IMG/VR virus record: IMGVR_UViG_2700989286_000012
Source of the DNA: a virus
Lineage: Duplodnaviria; Heunggongvirae; Uroviricota; Caudoviricetes
DNA: 10,458 bases
Strand: one strand, 5' to 3'
Shown one piece after another: positions 1-10,458 of the stretch (position 1 is the first letter of the stretch; every line of letters begins with the position of its first letter). A program made the translations under genes and the position numbers. Below the pieces are notes generated by a model. That model was given only the letters and a program-made list of their open reading frames with translations. It did not search any database and was not told the DNA's origin.

Positions 1-516
1 CTAAAAAATATAACCCGTTATTATCCTGAAAATATGCCATATGGTAATAATGTTCAGTATTTCCAGAGTGAAGATGGTAAGGATTTCTACGAATCCCTGC
101 CATTATTCACCAAAAAATATAAACTTTGCATAACACCTGACAGCGGCGTTATCTGCTCAATATCACAGGACGCCTCGGCGCTGTATCCTGCGGGGTTTTC
201 TGTGGTTGAGGTCGATGAACTCCCTGAAGGCACGGATATTTCAGGAAACTGGAAGTTTGATAATGGCATAATCTCCCGTATTCCGGTTAACTACGCAAGA
301 AAACTGGAAGCAATGCGCCAGTCATATCTTAATCAGGCATATGAAAAAATTAATGACTGGAGAACGGAGCTACAACTGGGCACCATCAGCGATGAAGACA
401 GAGCAGCACTTACCCAATGGATGGCATACATCAGTCAGGTGAAGAAAATGGAACTACCCGCCATTAAAACAGAAGCTGAATTTAACGCCATTAAATGGCC
501 TGAGCAGCCACAGTAA
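1..516 (+). CDS. Tail fiber assembly protein (Tfa / Mu U-like chaperone), probably 5'-partial at the window edge
   Basis: The C-terminal half (...ISDEDRAALTQWMAYISQVKKMELPAIKTEAEFNAIKWPEQPQ) has the conserved Tfa C-terminal pattern ending WPEQP. The first in-window ATG is at 34, but the frame stays open from 34 back to position 1 with no in-frame stop, and no Shine-Dalgarno precedes ATG-34, so the true start is probably upstream of the window. Stop codon TAA at 514..516. Confidence 0.75.
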   Translation, partial: LKNITRYYPENMPYGNNVQYFQSEDGKDFYESLPLFTKKYKLCITPDSGVICSISQDASALYPAGFSVVEVDELPEGTDISGNWKFDNGIISRIPVNYARKLEAMRQSYLNQAYEKINDWRTELQLGTISDEDRAALTQWMAYISQVKKMELPAIKTEAEFNAIKWPEQPQ

Positions 517-519
517 TAA

Positions 520-539
520 AGAAGGCCGGAAGGCCTTCT
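520..539. terminator. Candidate bidirectional intrinsic terminator hairpin between the convergent Tfa and tail fiber genes
   Basis: Perfect 8-bp stem AGAAGGCC (520..527) / GGCCTTCT (532..539) with a GGAA loop, 4 nt after the Tfa stop and 9 nt after the tail fiber stop. On the - strand it is followed by TTATTA, which is only moderately T-rich; there is no clean T-run on the + strand. Confidence 0.5.
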
Positions 540-547
540 GAATATCA

Positions 548-1429
548 TTATATACTTGCAGCCGTCACCCATGCTCCATTTAACAGATACTGCAACGGCC
601 GGTAATACACGCCGCCGACGTTATCTGCCGTATTCTTACCGACATCCTGTACTTTAATTCCGGTAAGAACATTGCCGCCCCCCAGATTCAGATCCCAGCT
701 TTCCCATGTTCCGGGCATATGTGCGGTCACCGACCCCAGTCTTATGGCGGTTACTGTTCCTGATGAGATAGTGATATCCTGCGTCCCGTCAAAGGGAACA
801 CCATTAATTGTGTGGGCATTTGCCAGCCTGTTCGCGGCAACGGCGGTGCCGTCCGATGGCAGGGCATTCGCCGCCCTGTTTACCGTTTCCCGTAAACCGA
901 CGTTATCGATAAAAGCCCCTTTATCCGGAATGTCTGCGCCGTTCTGCTCCCTGCGCAGGTAACGGTTATCACCTTCGCTTTTGCTGTAAACATCCAGATT
1001 ATTACGGGCGGTTCCCTTATTCTCCAGGTCGGCGAGATTCTGATCCTTCGCCAGGGCATTAACGTCACCGGGACCAAGACTGTTTTTTGTGGCAAGCGTC
1101 CCCAGACCAAGATAACCACGGGCCAGACGCTGGGCCTCCGCACCGGCATCAGCAATTTCTTTCAGGTTATTTTTCCGGGAAAAGGCATTCGCAGCGATAA
1201 TGGCTTTAATGGACAGCGTAAGCTGGTTTAACTGCGCCTTATCCGGCTGAATACTGGCTTCAGCCAGAATATTCAGCAGTTCGGCCTGGAGAATATTCAG
1301 CCAGTCCTGACCAATCCAGCTGATACCTTTTTGTCCGTCACCTTCGGTAAACCAGGTTGTGGTATTACTCTGCGCCGGTGCCAGCGCAGGCATATTCGCC
1401 ACGCCGGAATTATTATCAACATGAAACAT
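548..1429 (-). CDS. Phage tail fiber protein (Mu S-like), with a constant N-terminal part and a short variable C-terminal part
   Basis: 293-aa ORF. The ATG overlaps the upstream stop as TAATG (translational coupling). The N-terminus ([14 protein letters not shown]...[10 protein letters not shown]) looks like the conserved tail-fiber N-terminal attachment region. An invertase crossover-like site falls at codons 173..181 (FIDNVGLRE), leaving about 117 aa distal to it. Confidence 0.8.
887..912. other. Putative DNA-invertase crossover site (gix/hix-like) inside the tail fiber gene
   Basis: TTCCCGTAAACC-GA-CGTTATCGATAA: two imperfect 12-bp half-sites around a 2-bp core. It matches hixL (TTCTTGAAAACCAAGGTTTTTGATAA, recalled from memory) at 18 of 26 positions and gix even more closely as I recall it. 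Its position corresponds to the constant/variable junction of Mu-type fiber genes. Confidence 0.55.
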
Positions 1430-1989
1430 TAAATAGTCTCCTCTTCATGGCTGTTTGCATAAACGTAAATAAACGTCTGCCATGCAGGCTTATAACGGTT
1501 CAGAATACATTCCAGCGCACCGCCTTCATAAATACGCAGCGGCGTGAGAATATCATCCAGCACATTCATATTCCGGTAGCCGGTTTCACTGTTAATCGTG
1601 ACAATACTGACCCACTGCGAATCCGGTGAGGGCTGAATGTCAATCTGATAACCAAACTCCGCCGCAAACCGGATATAAAATTCACGGTTCAGCGAGGGCT
1701 TCATCCGGTATTTATTTCCGGCATAACGCTGTCGCTCCGTGAGGGTGGCTCCGGCCATATCACACTCGGGAAGCCCGAGATAACGCTCCCAGTCTTCCAG
1801 CAGCAGGCGCGACGTGTCAGGGAAACGCTCGGCAAGCAGCTGTTTACCCGTCCAGGATACACGCGCTGTCGAATGACTGAGGCCCAGACATAATGATGCC
1901 AGTACGGATGACGGACGCTTGTCCCATGCCAGCCCGTCAGGCAGTAACTGCAACAGGGCGCGCTGATGCGGGGTCAGGGTTACAGCCAT
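1429..1989 (-). CDS. Baseplate protein, DUF2313 family (Mu gp48-like)
   Basis: 186-aa ORF placed between the J-like baseplate gene and the tail fiber, as in Mu. The start ATG at 1989 overlaps the upstream gene's end by 10 nt; its stop overlaps the fiber start. Confidence 0.75.
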
Positions 1990-3062
1990 GTGATTTCTCC
2001 TACCGTCAGCAGCTCACTGTCTCCCGCCTGAACTGACGTCAGCGGACTGCGCACTTCAAAATCCTCCAGATTTTTCACCCCTGCCACCGCCCGCCAGAAA
2101 GACGACGGCAGAACCAGACCGCCGGGCCGGGATTCGTTATACAACAGGTCGGTCAGCGCCTGTTTTACGGCCGCCTGATTCTCCGGTGTTTTCGGGATGA
2201 TCCTGATGCTGAAGGGCACCGGCTTATTGGTCAGTTTAAACACGGTCACCGTCGGCCCCAGAGGCTGTCCGACAGGCTGGCCGGTCGCCGGATCATCATG
2301 ACTGCGGATATAATCCGCCACCCGCTGAACATCACCGTCACCGGGGAAAATATCCGGGTTATTATCCTGAACAAACGTTACCCCCACGCTGCCCGCCTGC
2401 GGCCATTCCGGGCGGCACCATGCCCGCGTCACGCCCGGCACTTCACGCGCCCAGCGTTCAAAATCATACTGCGTGCCGCCGGACGGTGGATTCTGCACCC
2501 GGAAAACCAGACGGGAAAGCAGCTCCGGCACGGTTTCCACATCCGCACCACCGGTGATCCCCGTTCCGGTCACCGTGGCCGTCTGGTTGATCCCCGCCTG
2601 CGGTGTGATAAATGTCAGTTTTGTCCCTGCCGGGGCATTCCCCGCACGACCGGCACTTTCGGCTTCCACACTGACATTCAGCGTACCGGCCTTACCGGTC
2701 AGGGAGGTGGTGATACGGTAAACCACGCCATCACTTCGCTGGAGAAGCACACCTTCCTTGATCCCCGCATCCGTGGTCAGCATCAGCTGAACCGGCCCGT
2801 CCCCCCGAGAGGCAGGCTTACGCATGACGCCCCAGAATGCACAGTGTTTCAGCAGTTCGGCTTCATCGGCTTCGGTCGGGATGATCTGACGCGCAATCCA
2901 GGCCAGATGCTCATGCTCCTGAGCAGATAACCCTGCCTGAGCGTAAGCAATGGCATTCAGGGTGGTTTCATTCACACCCGGCTGCGAGCCGGGCAGGCGC
3001 TGGCTGATATCCTGCTGTGTCTGCGTGATTAACTGTGCCAGCGGTAAAGGCTGATAAGGCAT
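1980..3062 (-). CDS. Baseplate J-like protein (Mu gp47-like)
   Basis: 360-aa ORF of the size and position expected for the J-family baseplate wedge. Its start at 3062 overlaps the upstream stop as TAATG. Confidence 0.8.
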   Translation of the reverse strand: MPYQPLPLAQLITQTQQDISQRLPGSQPGVNETTLNAIAYAQAGLSAQEHEHLAWIARQIIPTEADEAELLKHCAFWGVMRKPASRGDGPVQLMLTTDAGIKEGVLLQRSDGVVYRITTSLTGKAGTLNVSVEAESAGRAGNAPAGTKLTFITPQAGINQTATVTGTGITGGADVETVPELLSRLVFRVQNPPSGGTQYDFERWAREVPGVTRAWCRPEWPQAGSVGVTFVQDNNPDIFPGDGDVQRVADYIRSHDDPATGQPVGQPLGPTVTVFKLTNKPVPFSIRIIPKTPENQAAVKQALTDLLYNESRPGGLVLPSSFWRAVAGVKNLEDFEVRSPLTSVQAGDSELLTVGEITWL

Positions 3063-3499
3063 TACTCCCCCTTAAGATCAGCATAAAAAATCATGGGCCT
3101 CACTGAACCATCAGGCAGGGTTATGCGCACCGAAAGCGCCAGCCGCGCGTGTCCCACACGTTCTGCATGACAGACCACGGATGACGCCACGCCATCCTGA
3201 CTGAGCCAGCCCAGCGCCTCATCCGCGTAAGCACGGGCACGGCTTATCACCGAGGCCAGCGTTTTTTCCCGGCTGAGAAGCCACAGACGGGAGCCAATGG
3301 GGCGCGGGCGAAAACTGTCTCCCCACCATCCCCGGCGGTCGCGCGTACCGTCAGGGATTTCATCCGATGCCAGCGCCCGGCGGTCAGTAAACAGCGAAAT
3401 CAGAACGGCCGTCAGCAGACTGTCATCCGTCAGCAGGTCGGCACCGTTCAGTTGCAGCGAACCGCATCCCTGATCCCACACAATTGCAATATCAGCCAT
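3062..3499 (-). CDS. Baseplate protein, GP46 family (Mu gp46-like)
   Basis: I place the start at the ATG at 3499 (MADIAIVWDQG...), preceded by an AGGAG Shine-Dalgarno about 9 nt upstream and overlapping the gp45 stop in the ATGGCTGA arrangement. The longer ORF-track version (to 3643) would overlap gp45 in another frame and is rejected. Confidence 0.75.
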   Translation of the reverse strand: MADIAIVWDQGCGSLQLNGADLLTDDSLLTAVLISLFTDRRALASDEIPDGTRDRRGWWGDSFRPRPIGSRLWLLSREKTLASVISRARAYADEALGWLSQDGVASSVVCHAERVGHARLALSVRITLPDGSVRPMIFYADLKGE

Positions 3500-4103
3500 T
3501 CTCCGGCACTCCTGTCTTACTGCCTTCGCCGTTATCATGATGCACATGGCCGGAATACCGTATCCCTGCAATAACGGCATCCGACATTGTGAACAGTCCC
3601 TGAGATTTCCCCGTACCCTCAAGCGCGAAATTACCCTTAACATGCAGGTTCTTATCCACCGTCACATTGCCCGTAAAGGTGGCTTCCGGCGTATCCACCC
3701 GCATCCCCTCGTCGGCGTAAATCTCCAGCATTTTGCATGTCACAATAATGCGGCCATCCTTTGTTAACCGTATCCGGTGCCCCTCATGGTGATACACCCC
3801 CGTATCTCCGGCTGTGAGTCCGGTCGGGCGGCTGCGCCGGTCTTCCACCACAAGCACCACAGTCTGATCCCGCTGTCCGCCCAGACAGGCAAAAAAGGTT
3901 TCCGCACCCGGCAGGGGAACGCTGATCTGCCCGTACTGCTGGGGACGCTCCACATCATCAAAGGTTTCGCCGTCCATGCCGGTGAGCTGCACATTCTGCA
4001 TTTTCAGTTCGTCATGTGTGCCGGTCAGAACGCCCCGGCCAAACAACAGGCGAATACCGCGCGTTACCGGGGCAATCAGGCGGCTGAACACTTCATCATT
4101 CAT
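3492..4103 (-). CDS. Baseplate central spike protein (gpV / Mu gp45-like)
   Basis: The ORF track starts at a TTG at 4106; the adjacent ATG at 4103 (MNDEVF...) is the more likely start. It overlaps the P-like gene's stop by 8 nt. The C-terminus carries a His cluster (SGHVHHDNGEG) of the kind seen at metal-binding spike apices. Confidence 0.8.
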   Translation of the reverse strand: MNDEVFSRLIAPVTRGIRLLFGRGVLTGTHDELKMQNVQLTGMDGETFDDVERPQQYGQISVPLPGAETFFACLGGQRDQTVVLVVEDRRSRPTGLTAGDTGVYHHEGHRIRLTKDGRIIVTCKMLEIYADEGMRVDTPEATFTGNVTVDKNLHVKGNFALEGTGKSQGLFTMSDAVIAGIRYSGHVHHDNGEGSKTGVPENG

Positions 4104-5220
4104 CAAAGCTGATCCCCTGTTTTTTCATCTGCTGGCGAATAAAGGCATCAACATCGTCACCGGAACCACCCCGGCCCTTACTGTCCGGCTCTGCCGGAAC
4201 GATAAAGCCGTCACGCGGTGCCAGTACCAGCCGGGTGACTTCCCCGTTATGCTCATCAAGTAAAAACTCCACCTGACAGACCAGCAGTTCAGTCTGTTCT
4301 ATACCGAAACGCAGGGCTGAAACACCGGTCAGCAGATTGACATCCCATAACCGGCCATCATCCCGGAACCAGCCACGCACGGTGGCAGAAAACCGTTCTG
4401 AACGGGCAATCGCACGGCGCATTTCACGCAGGGCACGCTGCCGTGCACCGGTGATGTCTGTCTGTTGATCGGCGAGGATGATTTTCGGCCGGTAGCGGCC
4501 GATCTGCTCATCACTGATGACGCCCACAGGTGCTGCCAGACGGGCGGCGGATTCGCTGTCTCCCCGTTTGCCACCACCGCGCCCGTGTCCCCGGACACGG
4601 TATTCGCTGTATCGTCCTCGCCAGTCCGTGTTGTAATCGGCATCAAGCAGGTTATCTCCCAGCACCAGTCTGTCCGTCTGCTGGCTTCCTGCCTGGGTGA
4701 ACACCAGATCGCCGTCAGCATTACTGGTCACCAGCACCCCGCGATGCCGGGCAGCACGGGTCAGCGCATCCGCCACGGTTTCTGAGTTTTCCAGCGTAAA
4801 AGAGCTGAAGGGGCGTGCAGCCGTGTCGTCGTTAACCTGCCAGCGCACGGCTATCCCGAAGGGCGCACATAAATCTGCGGCAATCTGTGCCAGCGTCCGG
4901 TTGCGCCACTGGCTGCCGGGATGGATGGCGGCACAGTCCACCAGGTCGCCGGTTTTATCCCGACCGCTGATGCTGATCTGATGACGGGTTGCACTGATCC
5001 GCTGACTGACCTGATCCAGCCAGCCACTGATGACCGTCTGCCCGTTAATTCTGAGCGTCAGGGGCTGACCGGTCCGCAGGGCTGAGGGGATGCGCTCACC
5101 GGGCAGCATCAGCCCCAGTTCAAACGACCCGGCCAGATGCTCCAGCGAGCGACGGACGCTGACCGTCAGCCAGCCGGAAAAAATACTGCCGCCGATATAC
5201 AGTTCAATCCTGCTGCTCAC
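4096..5220 (-). CDS. Mu P-like tail/baseplate protein (late control D family)
   Basis: 374-aa ORF. The start is a GTG at 5220, preceded by a strong GGAGG Shine-Dalgarno 6-7 nt upstream, and overlaps the 3' end of the N-like gene by 17 nt. Position and size fit Mu P. Confidence 0.75.
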   Translation of the reverse strand: MSSRIELYIGGSIFSGWLTVSVRRSLEHLAGSFELGLMLPGERIPSALRTGQPLTLRINGQTVISGWLDQVSQRISATRHQISISGRDKTGDLVDCAAIHPGSQWRNRTLAQIAADLCAPFGIAVRWQVNDDTAARPFSSFTLENSETVADALTRAARHRGVLVTSNADGDLVFTQAGSQQTDRLVLGDNLLDADYNTDWRGRYSEYRVRGHGRGGGKRGDSESAARLAAPVGVISDEQIGRYRPKIILADQQTDITGARQRALREMRRAIARSERFSATVRGWFRDDGRLWDVNLLTGVSALRFGIEQTELLVCQVEFLLDEHNGEVTRLVLAPRDGFIVPAEPDSKGRGGSGDDVDAFIRQQMKKQGISFDE

Positions 5221-6562
5221 TGATCACCTCCACGCGGCGGCCACCCGGAACAAAAACCGGATCGGGGATATTGTTTCTGCGGACAAAATACTGCCAGCGG
5301 CGGCTGTTACCGGTGGCACGGTACAGCGTGACCAGTGCCGGTTCGGTGGTTCGCACCATGACCTGAAAAGCACCGGGAAGATGCACGCTCCGCGTGGTTA
5401 AATCTTCTGTCAGCGCAAGCCCTGCATCACGTAATGTAAGGGCGGTGCCGGTATGGCCCTGTGCGGACAGATCCAGCACCTGTTGTTCCATGACATCGCT
5501 CAAATCCCGGTTGATACGCTGCACATCAGCAGAACTTTCCAGCCAGGCCAGTCCGCCCGCACGGTCAGTATCCTGAACGTGCGTCGTATTCTGCCGGATG
5601 ACCTGATCCAGCAGTTTTCCGACCGTCTGCGCCTGCGACACCAGGGCTGCACTCTGCATGACGCTCCGCAGCAGACGGATATTGTTCTGTGCCGCAGGCG
5701 TCAGACCAATCAGGCGCTGTGGATCATCCTGTTCGCTGAGGGTGTAACGCAGGGAGGAAAGTGTGCGGTACAGCTGCGGCATGGCCTGCTCTGCTATGCT
5801 GTCACGGTTTGTGGTCAGGCTGCCGGACGGCGTTCCGGCTTTTCCGGTCAGAGACAGGGAAGGATCGCCGGGCAGCCCGGTCAGCACGGCAAACATTCCG
5901 GCCAGCGATTCAGCCATGCGACGGGGCGCATTAATCAGGGCGGCGGCATTGCCTTTCAGGGCAGTAAAACTGGCCGTAAAGGCACTGATATCCTGCACAA
6001 TCCCCATCCCCGAAACGGCATTCTCCAGTGCATCAATCTTATCGCTGATGGTGTCGGTCATGGCCTGTACATCATGCAGACCGTCTGAAATCACCGTCCA
6101 GCCGTCTGAAAGCGTGTTAAACAGCTGATTCATTGCTGAGCCGCTTTTCTGCTCCAGCGCAGCTGCCGTATCTTCTGCCACCGCAGGGGCGGTATCGTCA
6201 CTGGCGGGGATCACGTTGATCGTGAACTCAACCGTTCCCTGCTCGCTGGCGTTATAACGGCTTTCAAAGCTGTTTATCAGCACGTTTAACGTGCCGTAAT
6301 CCGGGTGCATCAGTTCACCGGCACCGGGTGCACGCAGCGCATCACGCAGGCGGCTTCGCTGTGTCTGAAGATCGTCTCCGGTCACCAGAACCGTGAATGT
6401 GAACTCCGGGAGTTTTGGCCCCAGATCATCCGCACCGCCGCTTTCACGCAGTGGGTATTCACGGCGCACAATGTTACGTCCGCCCCGTTCCCGCTGCTCC
6501 TGATAAACCAGGAACGGTACGCCACGAAAGGAGCCACGCCCCGGCGTGTCAGTAGAGGCCAT
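5204..6562 (-). CDS. Mu N-like DNA circulation protein
   Basis: 452-aa ORF immediately downstream of the tape-measure gene, as Mu N is. The start ATG at 6562 has a GGAGG Shine-Dalgarno 5 nt upstream and overlaps the tape-measure 3' end by 14 nt. Confidence 0.8.
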   Translation of the reverse strand: MASTDTPGRGSFRGVPFLVYQEQRERGGRNIVRREYPLRESGGADDLGPKLPEFTFTVLVTGDDLQTQRSRLRDALRAPGAGELMHPDYGTLNVLINSFESRYNASEQGTVEFTINVIPASDDTAPAVAEDTAAALEQKSGSAMNQLFNTLSDGWTVISDGLHDVQAMTDTISDKIDALENAVSGMGIVQDISAFTASFTALKGNAAALINAPRRMAESLAGMFAVLTGLPGDPSLSLTGKAGTPSGSLTTNRDSIAEQAMPQLYRTLSSLRYTLSEQDDPQRLIGLTPAAQNNIRLLRSVMQSAALVSQAQTVGKLLDQVIRQNTTHVQDTDRAGGLAWLESSADVQRINRDLSDVMEQQVLDLSAQGHTGTALTLRDAGLALTEDLTTRSVHLPGAFQVMVRTTEPALVTLYRATGNSRRWQYFVRRNNIPDPVFVPGGRRVEVISEQQD

Positions 6563-8327
6563 AGTTCCCTCCGTTCCAGACGTTCACATCCAGGCCATGC
6601 TGTGCGGTATCATCCACATCAATACTGCGCGCCCGCCAGCCTTCAGGGGCCACAAGCTCCACCCGTGCGGCGGTTTTCGCGGTGGCCTGTCCGCCGTTTT
6701 CGTCACTGCCGCCACGCAGTTTCTGCCAGGCCTGCGTCAGCCAGCCCCCCAGATAATCACCGAGATAGCTGCCCACCGTGGAACCAATGGCAACCCCGAC
6801 CGGACCAGCAGCCGCCCCCAGCGCGCCACCGGCGATACTTCCGGCAAGGGAACCCACGGCACCGGCTTTATCGGCTGCACTGGCGCTGCTGTCCAGCAGT
6901 ACAGGAGCCGCCATGGCACCGGCCCACAGGGCACCACCACCCAGCCGACCGGCACCACGGAACAGCCCGGCAAAACGCCCCAGCCCCATGCGGTTTCCGG
7001 CCGCCGTTAGCAGACCACCGGCACGGCTCATCATACGACCGAAGAAGCCCTGTTTACCGGCACTCTCCGCCAGTTGCTCACCGGCAGTCACGACGGTCGT
7101 GACACCCCGTCCACGTCCGGGGCCGCGTTTTTTACGGCCGCGCACGGTTTTGCCGTCACCGCTGACCACCACATCCCCGCCACCTGAGGCCAGGCCACCC
7201 GCAGGCCAGTTGGTGACCAGCACGGGCTGAACGGCAGCCGGATTTACCCCGGTAAGGAAATTCAGGAACCGGCCAGCGCGTCCGGGCTGCGTTCCCGGTA
7301 CAGTGGTCTGCGGTTTGCGGAAGGGCGACGTCAGCACGGAGGTCATCGCCATGCCATAGCGTAAGGGGGTTGCGCCGAGACGTAATGCTCCCGTCCCCGC
7401 AAACCTGAGCACCTTCAGCGCACGGGAGGCGAGATACATATACATCAGGTACTTTGCGGCGGTCTGCGCACCCTGACCAATGCGATCCAGCGCATCGCCA
7501 TAACCGGCGTCGCGCAGTGCCTGAAGCGTTTCCCTGACTTTCTGAATGACCCGGTAAAAGCCGGTCGCAGCGTCTCTGGCATACTCAAATCCCTGATTCA
7601 GGGCTGAGGCCGTCTGTGTGGCCAGCTTATCCTGTAAGCCGCTTTTCTGTGCCGCATCAGCATAATCCAGAAAGCCTTTCAGGCTCTTTTTCAGGCTGTC
7701 AAACGGTCCCTTTGCCATCACCTCGCGGGCAAATCCGTCCCAGACATCGCCCATCATGGACGTCATTCCCGTCCAGGAATTCATGGCGTTTTTCTGGGCA
7801 CCTTTTGCCTGTTCGGCCATCACCTGAAATAACAGGCGAATGCTGTCCGGTCCCAGTTTTCCTTTCTCGCCTTTCTCACGGATGATCTTCTGGTTTACAC
7901 CCAGCTTATCGGCCAGCAACTGGTAAACGTTAATCCCGTATCCGGTCAGAATATTGGCGTCCGCTGCCTGGATACTCTGGCGGGCAAACATCTGTTTGAG
8001 TTGCAGGGACGCACCCTGTGCATCTGACAGTGACCAGCCGTGATAGCCGCCCTGATCCTGAAGCATGGTAATAAAGCGACGGGCTTCCCTGTCACTCATA
8101 CCGAACCCGCGACTGGAGGCGTATTCCTGCATAACCCCCGCCAGCCCCCAGGTGGTGTCTTTGGCGTTCTGTACCGCCCAGGCTTTCACTGCTTCCGTTT
8201 TTGCCGTATCGCCATGATTAATGGCGTTGAGACGCAGAATATAGTTCTCCATCTCTGCGGCCGGGCGGATAAAGGCTTTATTAAACCCGTAGACCGCAGC
8301 CCCTCCCGCCAGCATCCCGTAAAGGTT
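6549..8327 (-). pseudogene. Tail tape-measure protein, 5'-truncated remnant
   Basis: Long ORF with a Gly/Ala-rich C-terminal region (GGALGAAAGPVGVAIGSTVGSYLGDYLGG) and an RGRKKRGPGRGRG stretch typical of tape-measure proteins. The frame is open up to 8387, but sequence above about 8330 is transposase coding DNA read in another frame. Neither the GTG at 8387 nor the ATG at 8315 has a recognisable Shine-Dalgarno. How much of the N-terminus is missing is unknown. Confidence 0.65.
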
Positions 8328-9456
8328 GCTTATCCGAGTAATACAGAAACGGTTTGCCGTGATGGCGAATGCCGTGCTGTATGGCACCGGCTACGGCGAA
8401 AACATTTTCAGCCAGGTCAAGGCTCCAGCCCACCACAAAGCGCGTGCCACCGTCGATAACAAAGGTCACTTCCGGTGCAAATGGCCGACCGTGAACCGGG
8501 TGTGCGCATTTCAGCTTCATGCCGTGACCGTCACCAATCCAGACATAATTCACCGGCATTTTTGACCAGTCGCGGCGCGTGAATCCCTCAAGCTGGCGGT
8601 ATTCACTGCCGGTCACCCGGCCTTTTTGTTTCACCACTTCCGGCAGTTTCTTCATTGCGCGGCGAATGGTGTCATAAGACGGCATGATATCGAGCATATA
8701 AGGCTCATCAGCGTGCCGGTGCTGCCATTCAGCGACAAAATCCTCGTAAGCCTCGGTCATTGGTCGGCCGTTTGACTGGCGATACTGCGCCAGAAATTCG
8801 GGCAGCCAGTTAATATCTTCGGCTTTTATTTCCTGGCGCTTACCCGGTGCCAGTAAAAGCAGGCGTTCAGCGGCGTTCTGCGCCTTGTTAAAGGCCGCAA
8901 TCCAGCGTTTCAGCGTGATTTCACTTAACGCGCGGCTGTTTCCCTTTTTGGCGTTCGCCGTCTCAACCATTGCCACAATGCGCTCGTCCAGCTGCGAACG
9001 TGCCAGGTTGTCAACGATAAACCGGATAGCCTTCGCACAGCTGAAACCAGGTTGTTGCGCGACTTTCAGAACTTCGCTGACGATCGCGATTCGTGCATCA
9101 GCCACCTGGCGCTGGTTTTCAGTCAGGGCATTAAGGCGTTCGACCATCAGTTGTGGTGATCCGCGATATGCCTCCACCGCATCAACCACGGCAGGCGAGC
9201 GTCTGGCCTTTGTCACCACTGGAGCCGGTGATTCATCGACTTTTTGAGTCATCAGTTGCAGGGCGTAGCGTTCACGTAATGCCTGCTGCGTCACTTCAGG
9301 TAAACAGTCGATGCTGTATTCAGTTGCTTTAGAGCCTGAGCGACGACGGGAACAACAGCTTTTCCCTTGTACGTAACGTTGTAATGCCTGGCGAATACCT
9401 TTTGTTGTAGCAGGCATTCCGGGCGCGCCAATCAGTTCTTTTGCAATGACATACAT
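8281..9456 (-). pseudogene. Mu A-type DDE transposase, N-terminal 391 codons only
   Basis: The N-terminus (MYVIAKELIGAPGMPATTKGI...SGSKATEYSIDCLPEVTQQAL) parallels the MuA enhancer-binding domain as I recall it. WIGDGHG aligns with the MuA first catalytic Asp region (INGDGY) and FLYYSD with the second Asp region. The frame then runs 14 unrelated codons to a stop at 8281, so the catalytic Glu and the C-terminal domain are missing. The start ATG at 9456 sits 1 nt after the ner stop. Confidence 0.8.
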
Positions 9457-9457
9457 A

Positions 9458-9706
9458 TCATGACGCCTTTCTCATATAGCTCTTAACCTGGTATCGACTG
9501 GGCCAGATTTCTTCAGGCGATACCCCAAGAGCATCAGCAATTATTTGCTGATACGGTCGGCAAGGAGTACGTAATACGCTTTTCAGCGAATCCCTGCTGT
9601 AACCAGCCTTTAAAGATAAAGAGCGCAGTGATAAGCCAGCCATGTGTAAGCGCGCCTTGATGATTTCAGGCGGCCAATCGTGATCTGAAACTTCTCTTCT
9701 ACTCAT
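9458..9706 (-). CDS. ner: Ner-like DNA-binding protein (Ner/Nlp family)
   Basis: 82-aa ORF with the DW...GLSLRSLS...QQIIADALGVSPEEIWPSRYQ pattern, which closely resembles Mu Ner and E. coli Nlp as recalled. It lies immediately upstream of the transposase gene and divergent from the repressor. A GAGGA Shine-Dalgarno precedes the ATG at 9706. Confidence 0.85.
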   Translation of the reverse strand: MSRREVSDHDWPPEIIKARLHMAGLSLRSLSLKAGYSRDSLKSVLRTPCRPYQQIIADALGVSPEEIWPSRYQVKSYMRKAS

Positions 9707-9726
9707 ACTTCCTCTATTCTAAAAAG

Positions 9727-9765
9727 TTACCCGCGCGGATATTCGTGCGGATATCTGTACGGGTA
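9727..9765. promoter_or_regulatory. Candidate operator cluster in the ner/repressor intergenic region
   Basis: Inverted repeat TTACCCG (9727..9733) / CGGGTAA (9759..9765) enclosing two direct copies of GCGGATAT (9736..9743 and 9748..9755) at a 12-bp period. It lies just downstream of the candidate early promoter -10 element. Confidence 0.4.
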
Positions 9766-9766
9766 A

Positions 9767-9796
9767 ATAATAGAACAAACAAAAGAACCAAATCAA
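9767..9796 (-). promoter_or_regulatory. Candidate early promoter (Pe-like) driving ner and the transposase
   Basis: On the - strand, -35 TTGATT (9791..9796), an 18-nt spacer and -10 TATTAT (9767..9772), with a predicted start near 9760. Identified by eye only. Confidence 0.3.
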
Positions 9797-9873
9797 GGTA
9801 TTTTGTTCTTTTTATTCTTTGCGGTGTTTTTGTTATTAATATCAATAAGATAAATAAAAAGGAACCTGAGAGC

Positions 9874-10458
9874 ATGAACATGAAAAACAGTTCTTTTCTC
9901 GACGAAGGAAAAGAACCAGTGATCGAACGGATTTTTCGTCTTGCAGAGCGTTACAAATCGAGAAGTGAGGCGGCTAGAGCATGGGGAATAAACGTTCAGA
10001 CATTGCAGAACTACTACAAAAGGAGAAACAATCAGCCGCCACCACAACCAAGAAAGCACCATCTCCAGAACATTGCAGAAAGAGAACATGTATCTATGGA
10101 GTGGCTGGTCAATGGTTATTGTGATGAGCCAAGCATGAAAAAAGAACCAATTGAACAAACAAAAAGAACAAAAAAACAAAGAATTGATGATAGTGATTCC
10201 ATCATCATGAGGGCGTGGGACTCGCTAACTTCATCTGAACAAGAGATTTTGTCCAACTTATTGATCAGAAAAGGGGCCGAACTACTAACCGTTTTGCTTG
10301 ATACAGATATTCAAAAACTGCACTCATTGAGCGGAGTCAAAAGAGCACTAGCATTGAGTCTACAAGAGTTACCCGATGATACTGTAAGAGAGATTTATGA
10401 AGAATGTGAAGCTAAGGTTAATCATTTAAATGTAACCCAGAAAAAGGCTGGTGCGTAA
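9874..10458 (+). CDS. Putative prophage repressor, positional equivalent of Mu c (HTH DNA-binding protein)
   Basis: Transcribed divergently from ner across an AT-rich control region, as Mu c is. Likely start is ATG 9874 (MNMKNSS...) with AAGGA about 10 nt upstream; ATG 9880 is an alternative. The N-terminal segment SRSEAARAWGINVQTLQNYYKRR looks like a helix-turn-helix. The upstream in-frame extension to 9745 runs through the operator region and is rejected. The family is uncertain; it does not obviously resemble Mu c. Confidence 0.65.
   Translation: MNMKNSSFLDEGKEPVIERIFRLAERYKSRSEAARAWGINVQTLQNYYKRRNNQPPPQPRKHHLQNIAEREHVSMEWLVNGYCDEPSMKKEPIEQTKRTKKQRIDDSDSIIMRAWDSLTSSEQEILSNLLIRKGAELLTVLLDTDIQKLHSLSGVKRALALSLQELPDDTVREIYEECEAKVNHLNVTQKKAGA

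Follow-up and report, generated by a model that had tools for sequence, protein, structure and literature searches.

A conserved one-chaperone form of the Gin/gix-type tail fibre switch in Sp18-like, Mu-like prophages of Escherichia coli

The closest described relative of the element treated here is the G segment of bacteriophage Mu, in which the constant part of the fibre gene (Sc) and a first gix crossover site are followed by two variable fibre ends, each with its own chaperone gene (Sv-U and, on the other strand, U'-S'v), and then by a second gix site and the invertase gene gin, whose start contains a FIS-dependent recombinational enhancer (sis). The Mu tips need U or U', and the S tip, which reportedly requires U (Grundy & Howe 1984; North et al. 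2019), has been crystallised together with this protein. Chaperones of this kind, the tail fibre assembly proteins (Tfa), are usually assumed to work with one fibre only, the one whose gene immediately precedes theirs, and this assumption guides both annotation and host-range engineering. The subject of this work is the left end of a stretch of 10,458 nt from the virus record IMGVR_UViG_2700989286_000012 (the whole stretch is referred to as the window), where a tail fibre gene and a single Tfa gene run towards each other. This region forms the edge of a compact invertible host-range segment (1.3 kb) of the Gin/gix type, of which the window holds the right-hand two thirds, and its carrier is an Sp18-like, Mu-like prophage of E. 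coli. The segment consists of two tips and one Tfa, and represents a conserved one-chaperone form of this well-known host-range switch that was previously undescribed, as no account of the single-Tfa asymmetry of the Sp18-type segment was found in the literature searched.

The left part of the segment was read from near-identical E. coli genomes and not from the window itself, whose first 1500 bases are 99.9% identical to complete E. coli genomes. The reference used for this extension was the locus L001 of strain JE86-ST05, in which a window coordinate equals the L001 coordinate minus 12000. The order found in L001 is gin, a gix-like site, an alternative tip leading through a spacer into the Tfa gene, a hairpin, the expressed tip in the opposite direction, a second gix-like site and the constant part of the fibre. 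The tip that is co-directional with Tfa is designated here the cis tip, and the one that is convergent with it, which is the tip expressed in the window, the trans tip. In L001, the cis tip appears as an N-terminally incomplete "tail protein" fragment, and it is separated from Tfa by 51 nt of AT-rich DNA (21.6% G+C). The invertase is a recombinase of 190 amino acids (aa), 74% identical to Mu Gin, which is encoded directly to the left of the segment in the near-identical genomes.

The crossover site in the window lies inside the fibre open reading frame (ORF), and its partner, in inverted orientation, is located outside the window beside the invertase gene (L001 11570-11595), with matching core dinucleotides (TC/GA). 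The two sites stand at the ends of an inverted repeat encoding the start that is common to both alternative tips. Of its arms inside the window, the one of 86 nt (822-907) shows 93% complementarity to its partner, and the other (759-808) shows 84%; in L001 coordinates, the paired arms are 11575-11660 with 12822-12907, and 11674-11723 with 12759-12808. Only two complete gix-like sites and only two tips are present in 25.5 kb, so that the element is a two-state switch and not a shufflon. A multi-cassette, shufflon-like arrangement, which a preliminary description of this DNA had listed among its options, is rejected on these grounds. The same description had named a second Tfa, in the orientation of the fibre and just beyond the window, as the finding that would refute it; the leftward extension in the near-identical genomes revealed no second Tfa there, the genes and sites encountered being the alternative tip, the second gix-like site and the gin-like invertase.

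When the 1319 bp between the two site cores were inverted in silico, the reading frame was kept and a fibre of 296 aa was obtained, sharing its first 203 aa with the fibre of the window and differing from it in the last ~93 aa. In either state of the switch, the constant part of the fibre (aa 1-177) is fused with one of two alternative tips of ~116-119 aa. Inversion has also occurred in nature. Complete E. coli genomes were searched both for the arrangement as it stands in the window and for its in-silico inverted form. Among near-identical prophages, 19 records have the orientation of the window and 6 have the flipped one, and three genomes (DLI.5a, TOE17 and AST46) carry one copy in each orientation. 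The IMG/VR loci likewise show both orientations, and about ten IMG/VR contigs stop within ~130 nt of the crossover site, which is how assemblers behave when orientations are mixed. As a separate observation, the first base of the window, which falls 6 nt inside Tfa, is also the base at which an independent contig (L014/L094, IMGVR_UViG_2663762945_000008) stops; assemblies seem to break reproducibly in and around the invertible segment.

The one-Tfa layout is not peculiar to this prophage. Loci were retrieved with two independent queries, Tfa (80 IMG/VR loci) and the constant fibre part (58 loci). Exactly one Tfa is present in all 36 Sp18-like loci recovered with the first query, and the same holds for every Sp18-like locus from the second query that is long enough, O157:H7 included. 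The order is constant: gin, the cis tip, the spacer, Tfa and the hairpin, followed by the opposing trans tip and the constant part. This layout spans Tfa alleles that are 60-100% identical and several tip types, and is also found in prophages in which all structural genes are intact. Its presence in every Sp18-like locus examined and in intact prophages indicates a stable design rather than a recent loss or defect. The preliminary description had correctly recognized an invertible fibre segment with a missing second Tfa, departing from the classical Sv-U / U'-S'v layout; its suggestion that the cognate chaperone was lost holds as a description of the architecture, although not as a recent defect. 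Relatives of the region were found in about 230-240 of the 5426 complete genomes of E. coli (about 4%), among them those with O157:H7 Sp18. Among isolated phages, no instance of the one-Tfa architecture was found in the phage collection, except for Mu-like insertions inside Shiga toxin (Stx) phages, and a Tfa scan of species-representative genomes gave 93 pattern matches, none of which was confirmed. The modules of the segment ([cis tip and spacer], [Tfa], and [hairpin and trans tip]) seem to recombine separately; locus L037, for instance, combines a tip and spacer of the L003 type with a Tfa of the L002 type. Of the loci examined, the IMG/VR copy L007 alone has a disrupted tip: its cis tip (3591-3890) is frameshifted and encodes 99 aa with an aberrant C-terminus.

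A single convergent Tfa also occurs in a more distant Mu-like locus, L130 (IMGVR_UViG_2878893965_000006, 3501-7371), whose constant fibre part is 74% identical to that of the window. Its Tfa is of a different, unrelated type (Caudo_TAP plus DUF4376), and its fibre is followed by a perfect palindrome of 17 bp. There are apparently three gix-like sites in L130 (at about 4320, 6345 and 6710), and this locus may hold more cassettes than Tfas. Its sister locus L123, related to the window through a gp48 gene that is 76% identical and a constant fibre part that is 65% identical, has the classical two-Tfa layout.

The genes at the left edge of the window are arranged as the preliminary description had it, with the fibre ending before a hairpin that is followed by a Tfa on the opposite strand (Table 1). 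The description of the latter as merely the 3' end of a Tfa gene has to be amended, because the window contains 171 of its 173 codons. The entire gene corresponds to L001 11995-12516, with its start 6 nt to the left of the window, and the ATG at position 34 is an internal Met codon. The product is identified as a Tfa by its match to Caudo_TAP (PF02413, E 4e-19), which scores 69.5 bits where 22.1 would suffice, and by its matches to PHROG 136 (E 5e-56) and Mu U (5yvq_B, E 4e-16). It is encoded in the same direction as the unexpressed alternative tip to the left of the window, and convergently with the expressed fibre. The fibre protein matches PHROG 1833 (tail fibre, E 7e-141), and its N-terminal ~190 aa (residues 1-191) match Mu S and S' (5yvq_A and 8ju3_A, E ~1e-45). 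Its variable part, previously estimated at about 117 aa, is indeed short and was measured at 116 aa, starting at the crossover site. A distance of only 28-35 nt separates the stop codon of the expressed tip from that of the convergent Tfa, so that no gene fits between them.

The G+C content of Tfa is 42.6%, below that of the constant fibre part (51.5%), as had been noticed before, and below that of the window (55.3%). This difference from the fibre could be taken to mean that the Tfa of the window comes from an unrelated neighbouring element and that the fibre's own Tfa is encoded elsewhere. We give this explanation practically no credence, and the leftward extension refuted it: Tfa belongs to the same gix-bounded segment as the fibre tip, where it is placed between both tips with gin as a neighbour, and a second Tfa is absent. 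The low G+C content is usual for Tfa genes and gives no sign of a foreign origin, Mu U (44.3%) and U' (42.5%) being similarly low.

The hairpin between the two genes scores as terminator-like on the minus strand (the sense of the fibre), with a folding energy of about -17 kcal/mol in context, and is likely a bidirectional terminator parting the transcription of the fibre from that of Tfa. Two forms of this hairpin exist, each going with its own subtype of trans tip; at the same place, relatives with the other tip subtype have a different hairpin, which has the canonical features of a terminator when read in the Tfa sense. The fibre gene is preceded on the minus strand by the late tail operon, which leads into it, and this strand of the window also holds the tape measure gene and gp43-48-like baseplate genes.

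Table 1. Coordinates in the window of the features of the invertible segment and its surroundings.
Feature	Position	Strand	Description
Tail fibre assembly protein (Tfa) gene	1-516	plus	first two codons cut by the window edge; full length 173 aa
Hairpin between the convergent stop codons	520-539		8-bp G+C-rich stem with a 4-nt loop: AGAAGGCC-GGAA-GGCCTTCT
Tail fibre gene, constant part and expressed variable tip	548-1429	minus	ORF, 293 aa
Variable fibre tip with the "SADN-GGVYYRP" signature	548-898	minus	116 aa (aa 178-293), without a co-directional Tfa
Inverted repeat, in-window arms	759-907		encode the start common to both alternative tips
gix-like 26-bp crossover site	887-912		inside the fibre ORF, TTCCCGTAAACC-GA-CGTTATCGATAA; 22/26 bases equal to Mu gixR
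Mu gp48-like baseplate wedge gene, upstream of the fibre	1429-1989	minus	Pfam Phage_Mu_Gp48, E 7.5e-22

The question raised by this architecture is how the trans tip, behind which no Tfa is encoded, is assembled. The tip begins at the gix half-site encoding GLRE, and its first ~28 aa fall in the 86-nt inverted repeat. On the Tfa-less side of the segment, the tip invariably comes from a single family, which has the signature ...SADN(I/V)GGVYYRP.Q... and two subtypes of 116 and 126 aa, while three other tip types occur on the Tfa-linked side. All tips have in common a distal domain of ~70 aa. In profile searches, this domain matched Mu S (residues 437-503, E 2e-15), the short tail fibre of phiTE (E 2e-18) and Mu S' (E 4e-5), and this homology indicates that the trans tip is of the same kind as the U- and U'-dependent tips of Mu. 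Both tips are homologous to tips that depend on a Tfa, and for the trans tip such homologues occur in Mu, P1, P2 and CR8.

One alternative is that the trans tip is nevertheless independent of chaperones, or folds on host chaperones, and that Tfa serves the co-directional tip only; as a consequence, inversion would toggle between a fibre that needs (and perhaps carries) Tfa and a Tfa-free one. This explanation agrees with the fact that gene order usually guides Tfa partnership, Tfa following here the cis tip alone, and with the systematic asymmetry between the tip families of the two sides. We nonetheless consider it rather unlikely, and the suggestion in the preliminary description that such a short tip needs no chaperone is accordingly disfavoured. 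Besides the homology of its distal 70 aa with the U-requiring Mu S tip, no Pfam family and, in particular, no intramolecular chaperone domain of the Peptidase_S74 type was detected in the fibre. Furthermore, all relatives of the tip that are non-invertible or come from isolated phages have an adjacent Tfa. In all 11 non-invertible IMG/VR loci with the same tip family, the tip is followed after 14 nt by a Tfa that is 58-62% identical to that of the window, and in Cronobacter phage CR8, a P2-like phage and a P1-like phage a Tfa follows the related tips after 5, 1 and -1 nt, respectively. Among the non-invertible loci, Tfas that are 94-99% identical sit behind either the "ADN" tip family or another type, which implies that one Tfa type can partner both classes.

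A lineage in which the switch is locked bears on the same question. In this lineage, a single shared deletion took out the cis tip together with one gix site and the whole of gin except for ~20 codons at its end, leaving the spacer and Tfa, in such a way that Tfa is permanently convergent and the fibre is permanently the Tfa-less one. It comprises the IMG/VR loci L017 and L021-L026 and occurs in 7 complete E. coli genomes, with strains M18 (L086, 20048-20351) and CI5 among its carriers. If Tfa served the cis tip only, it would be useless in these gin-less prophages, yet it is intact in 7 of 7 IMG/VR copies, and the ratio of non-synonymous to synonymous divergence (dN/dS) is of the order of 0.1-0.2 (0.10-0.23 among five alleles). 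The preservation of an intact Tfa under apparent selection argues that it is used, and hence expressed, when convergent with the fibre, that is, in the orientation of the window.

The locked lineage also bears on a second alternative, according to which the orientation of the window is an "off" or crippled state, in which the fibre misfolds and only the flipped state is infectious, the layout being a degenerate two-Tfa segment that is tolerated. A loss of one Tfa is a plausible origin of the layout in view of the two-Tfa arrangement of the related L123, and many copies, those of the window and L001 among them, reside in decayed prophages. We regard this explanation as improbable, because the trans tips are intact ORFs in practically all loci, with dN/dS values of 0.04-0.16 among relatives whose synonymous divergence (dS) reaches values above 1, a mark of strong purifying selection. 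In addition, the locked lineage has survived in this very orientation, its M18 prophage being annotated without a defect in any structural gene, and the orientation of the window is the commoner one in genomes.

The best supported explanation, which was absent from the three options of the preliminary description, is that both tips are served by one generalist Tfa, whose expression does not depend on orientation; as a whole, we judge its chances to be about even. We infer both the action of Tfa on the trans tip and its orientation-independent expression. The Gin-like serine invertase flips the DNA between the two 26-bp gix-like sites, and in such a model the single Tfa would recognize the conserved C-terminal domain common to both tips. 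With the cis tip expressed, Tfa would be made through read-through from the late operon, and with the trans tip expressed, from a signal of its own in the long AT-rich spacer upstream (51-121 nt). The hairpin between the converging genes would hold the two transcription units apart.

The length of the spacer follows the architecture. Between the cis tip and Tfa there are 51, 79 or 120 nt in one-Tfa segments of the Sp18-like type, and L130 has 69 nt there. In relatives that are non-invertible or have two Tfas, tip and Tfa overlap by up to 8 nt or are at most 14 nt apart (2 nt in Mu, 1 nt and, for the second pair, an 8-nt overlap in L123, and 14 nt in the non-invertible group). This is a correlation, and several observations weigh against a generalist Tfa with its own signal. 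Scans of three spacer families (L001, L002 and L003) for a sigma-70 consensus gave nothing consistent, the same scan of the gin-less L086 gave nothing above chance, and no motif linking these spacers with the putative late-promoter regions of the same phage family, those before com and the protease (I) gene, stood out from shuffled controls. In the 2.6 kb of L130, only two promoter-like matches were found, both in the spacer between tip and Tfa and both in the Tfa sense, but such matches occur only in L130 and at the gin-less deletion junction, and in both cases they are within chance expectation. The long spacers may in part be recombination scars, since those of 120 nt (L003, L004, L017 and others) open with a relic of the C-terminus of another tip (INGSWRTAGSA*), a scar of cassette replacement. 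Finally, the synonymous divergence of Tfa in the locked lineage exceeds that of the adjacent non-coding DNA, and its selection signal could partly stem from alleles imported by recombination. Inspection of the spacers by eye also gave no match to a Mu C-type site (TTAT-N6-ATAA). That no promoter was detected for orientation-independent expression is a further point in favour of a Tfa restricted to the cis tip.

It can be proposed, although tentatively and as less probable than a shared Tfa as such, either that Tfa, as chaperone/adhesin, is itself phase-variable, inversion alternating between a fibre made with Tfa, perhaps capped by it, and a fibre made without it, or that a dedicated orientation-independent promoter supplies both tips with a generalist Tfa. 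If either were true, it would constitute a natural minimal module of two tips and one chaperone that has arisen at least twice, in the Sp18-like loci and in L130. In more general terms, this is a widespread natural switch in which one Tfa is common to two tips, or one of the tips dispenses with it, which makes both the promiscuity and the expression of Tfa directly testable in a simple system and offers a compact module of ~1.3 kb for host-range switching. For annotation, it follows that a convergent Tfa beside a fibre gene need not mean a broken or foreign cassette.

The prophage copies that carry the segment differ in their state. The window is collinear with intact relatives over positions 1-8336 (99.1% identity), and positions 8337-10458 correspond to the left end of the prophage, region 8281-10458 encoding a repressor-like protein, ner and the N-terminal part of the Mu transposase. 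The gene of this transposase is cut after about 370 codons and runs directly into the inside of the tape measure gene at the junction 8336/8337 (minus-strand ORFs 6549-8387 and 8281-9456). The junction points are ~22.8 kb apart in the intact relative NZ_OZ547136.1, and the junction itself occurs in none of the 5426 complete E. coli genomes, for which reason the copy in the window is either a large internal deletion derivative or an assembly chimera, unable to make virions itself. In the copy of JE86-ST05 that is nearest to the window, frameshifts affect the genes for the circularisation protein, tape measure, tube and sheath (L001 17204-23106), so this prophage is decayed, and the strain has a second, gin-less Mu-like prophage (H115). 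The M18 prophage (L086 35858-35937) carries a RefSeq "tRNA-OTHER" annotation on the opposite strand, between virion morphogenesis and minor head genes.

Between gin and com/mom, L001 also encodes on the minus strand (8792-10846) a "DUF6645" protein, which is a 9-O-acetyl-sialic acid esterase of the NanS-p type according to its matches to PDB entries 3pt5 (E 2e-117) and 6yp6 (E 7e-98). NanS-p genes are known as cargo of the Stx phages of enterohaemorrhagic E. coli, and in L001 the gene lies within a Mu-like prophage. This neighbour was considered as a second client of Tfa and ruled out, as it is a sialate O-acetylesterase and not a fibre.

In comparison with known systems, the element is closest to the G segment of Mu. 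Its carrier belongs to the same phage family, with gp44-48 baseplate genes, a c/ner/A left end and com/mom. The gix-like sites occupy the same place in the fibre ORF, at codons for GL(R/Q)ETVN, and share 22 of 26 bases with gixR. The invertase, at 74% identity to Gin, the constant fibre part, homologous to residues 1-190 of Mu S, the distal tip, homologous to S and S', and Tfa, homologous to U and U' with 28-32% identity, all have their counterparts in Mu. Contrary to Mu, however, which has two Tfas in a segment of 3 kb, there is one Tfa in 1.3 kb, the variable tips have ~116-126 aa instead of ~320-335 aa, the spacer before Tfa measures 51-121 nt instead of 2 nt, and the converging genes are parted by a hairpin instead of a second Tfa. 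Sp18 of O157:H7 Sakai and other O157:H7 genomes have the same architecture, and the constant part and gp48 are 99% identical between the window and this copy (L002), whereas Tfa is 61% identical and the tips are only 47-51% identical. The P1 C, e14 P and P2-like segments of the Cin/Pin family likewise use a serine invertase to swap fibre C-termini, and a P1-like phage has a tip that is 52% identical to that of the window, but in these segments there is one Tfa per tip, located 0-6 nt downstream. The site-specific inversion of C-terminal cassettes is also shared with the Min system of p15B and the R64 shufflon, of which the present element, with its two sites and two cassettes, is not a member.

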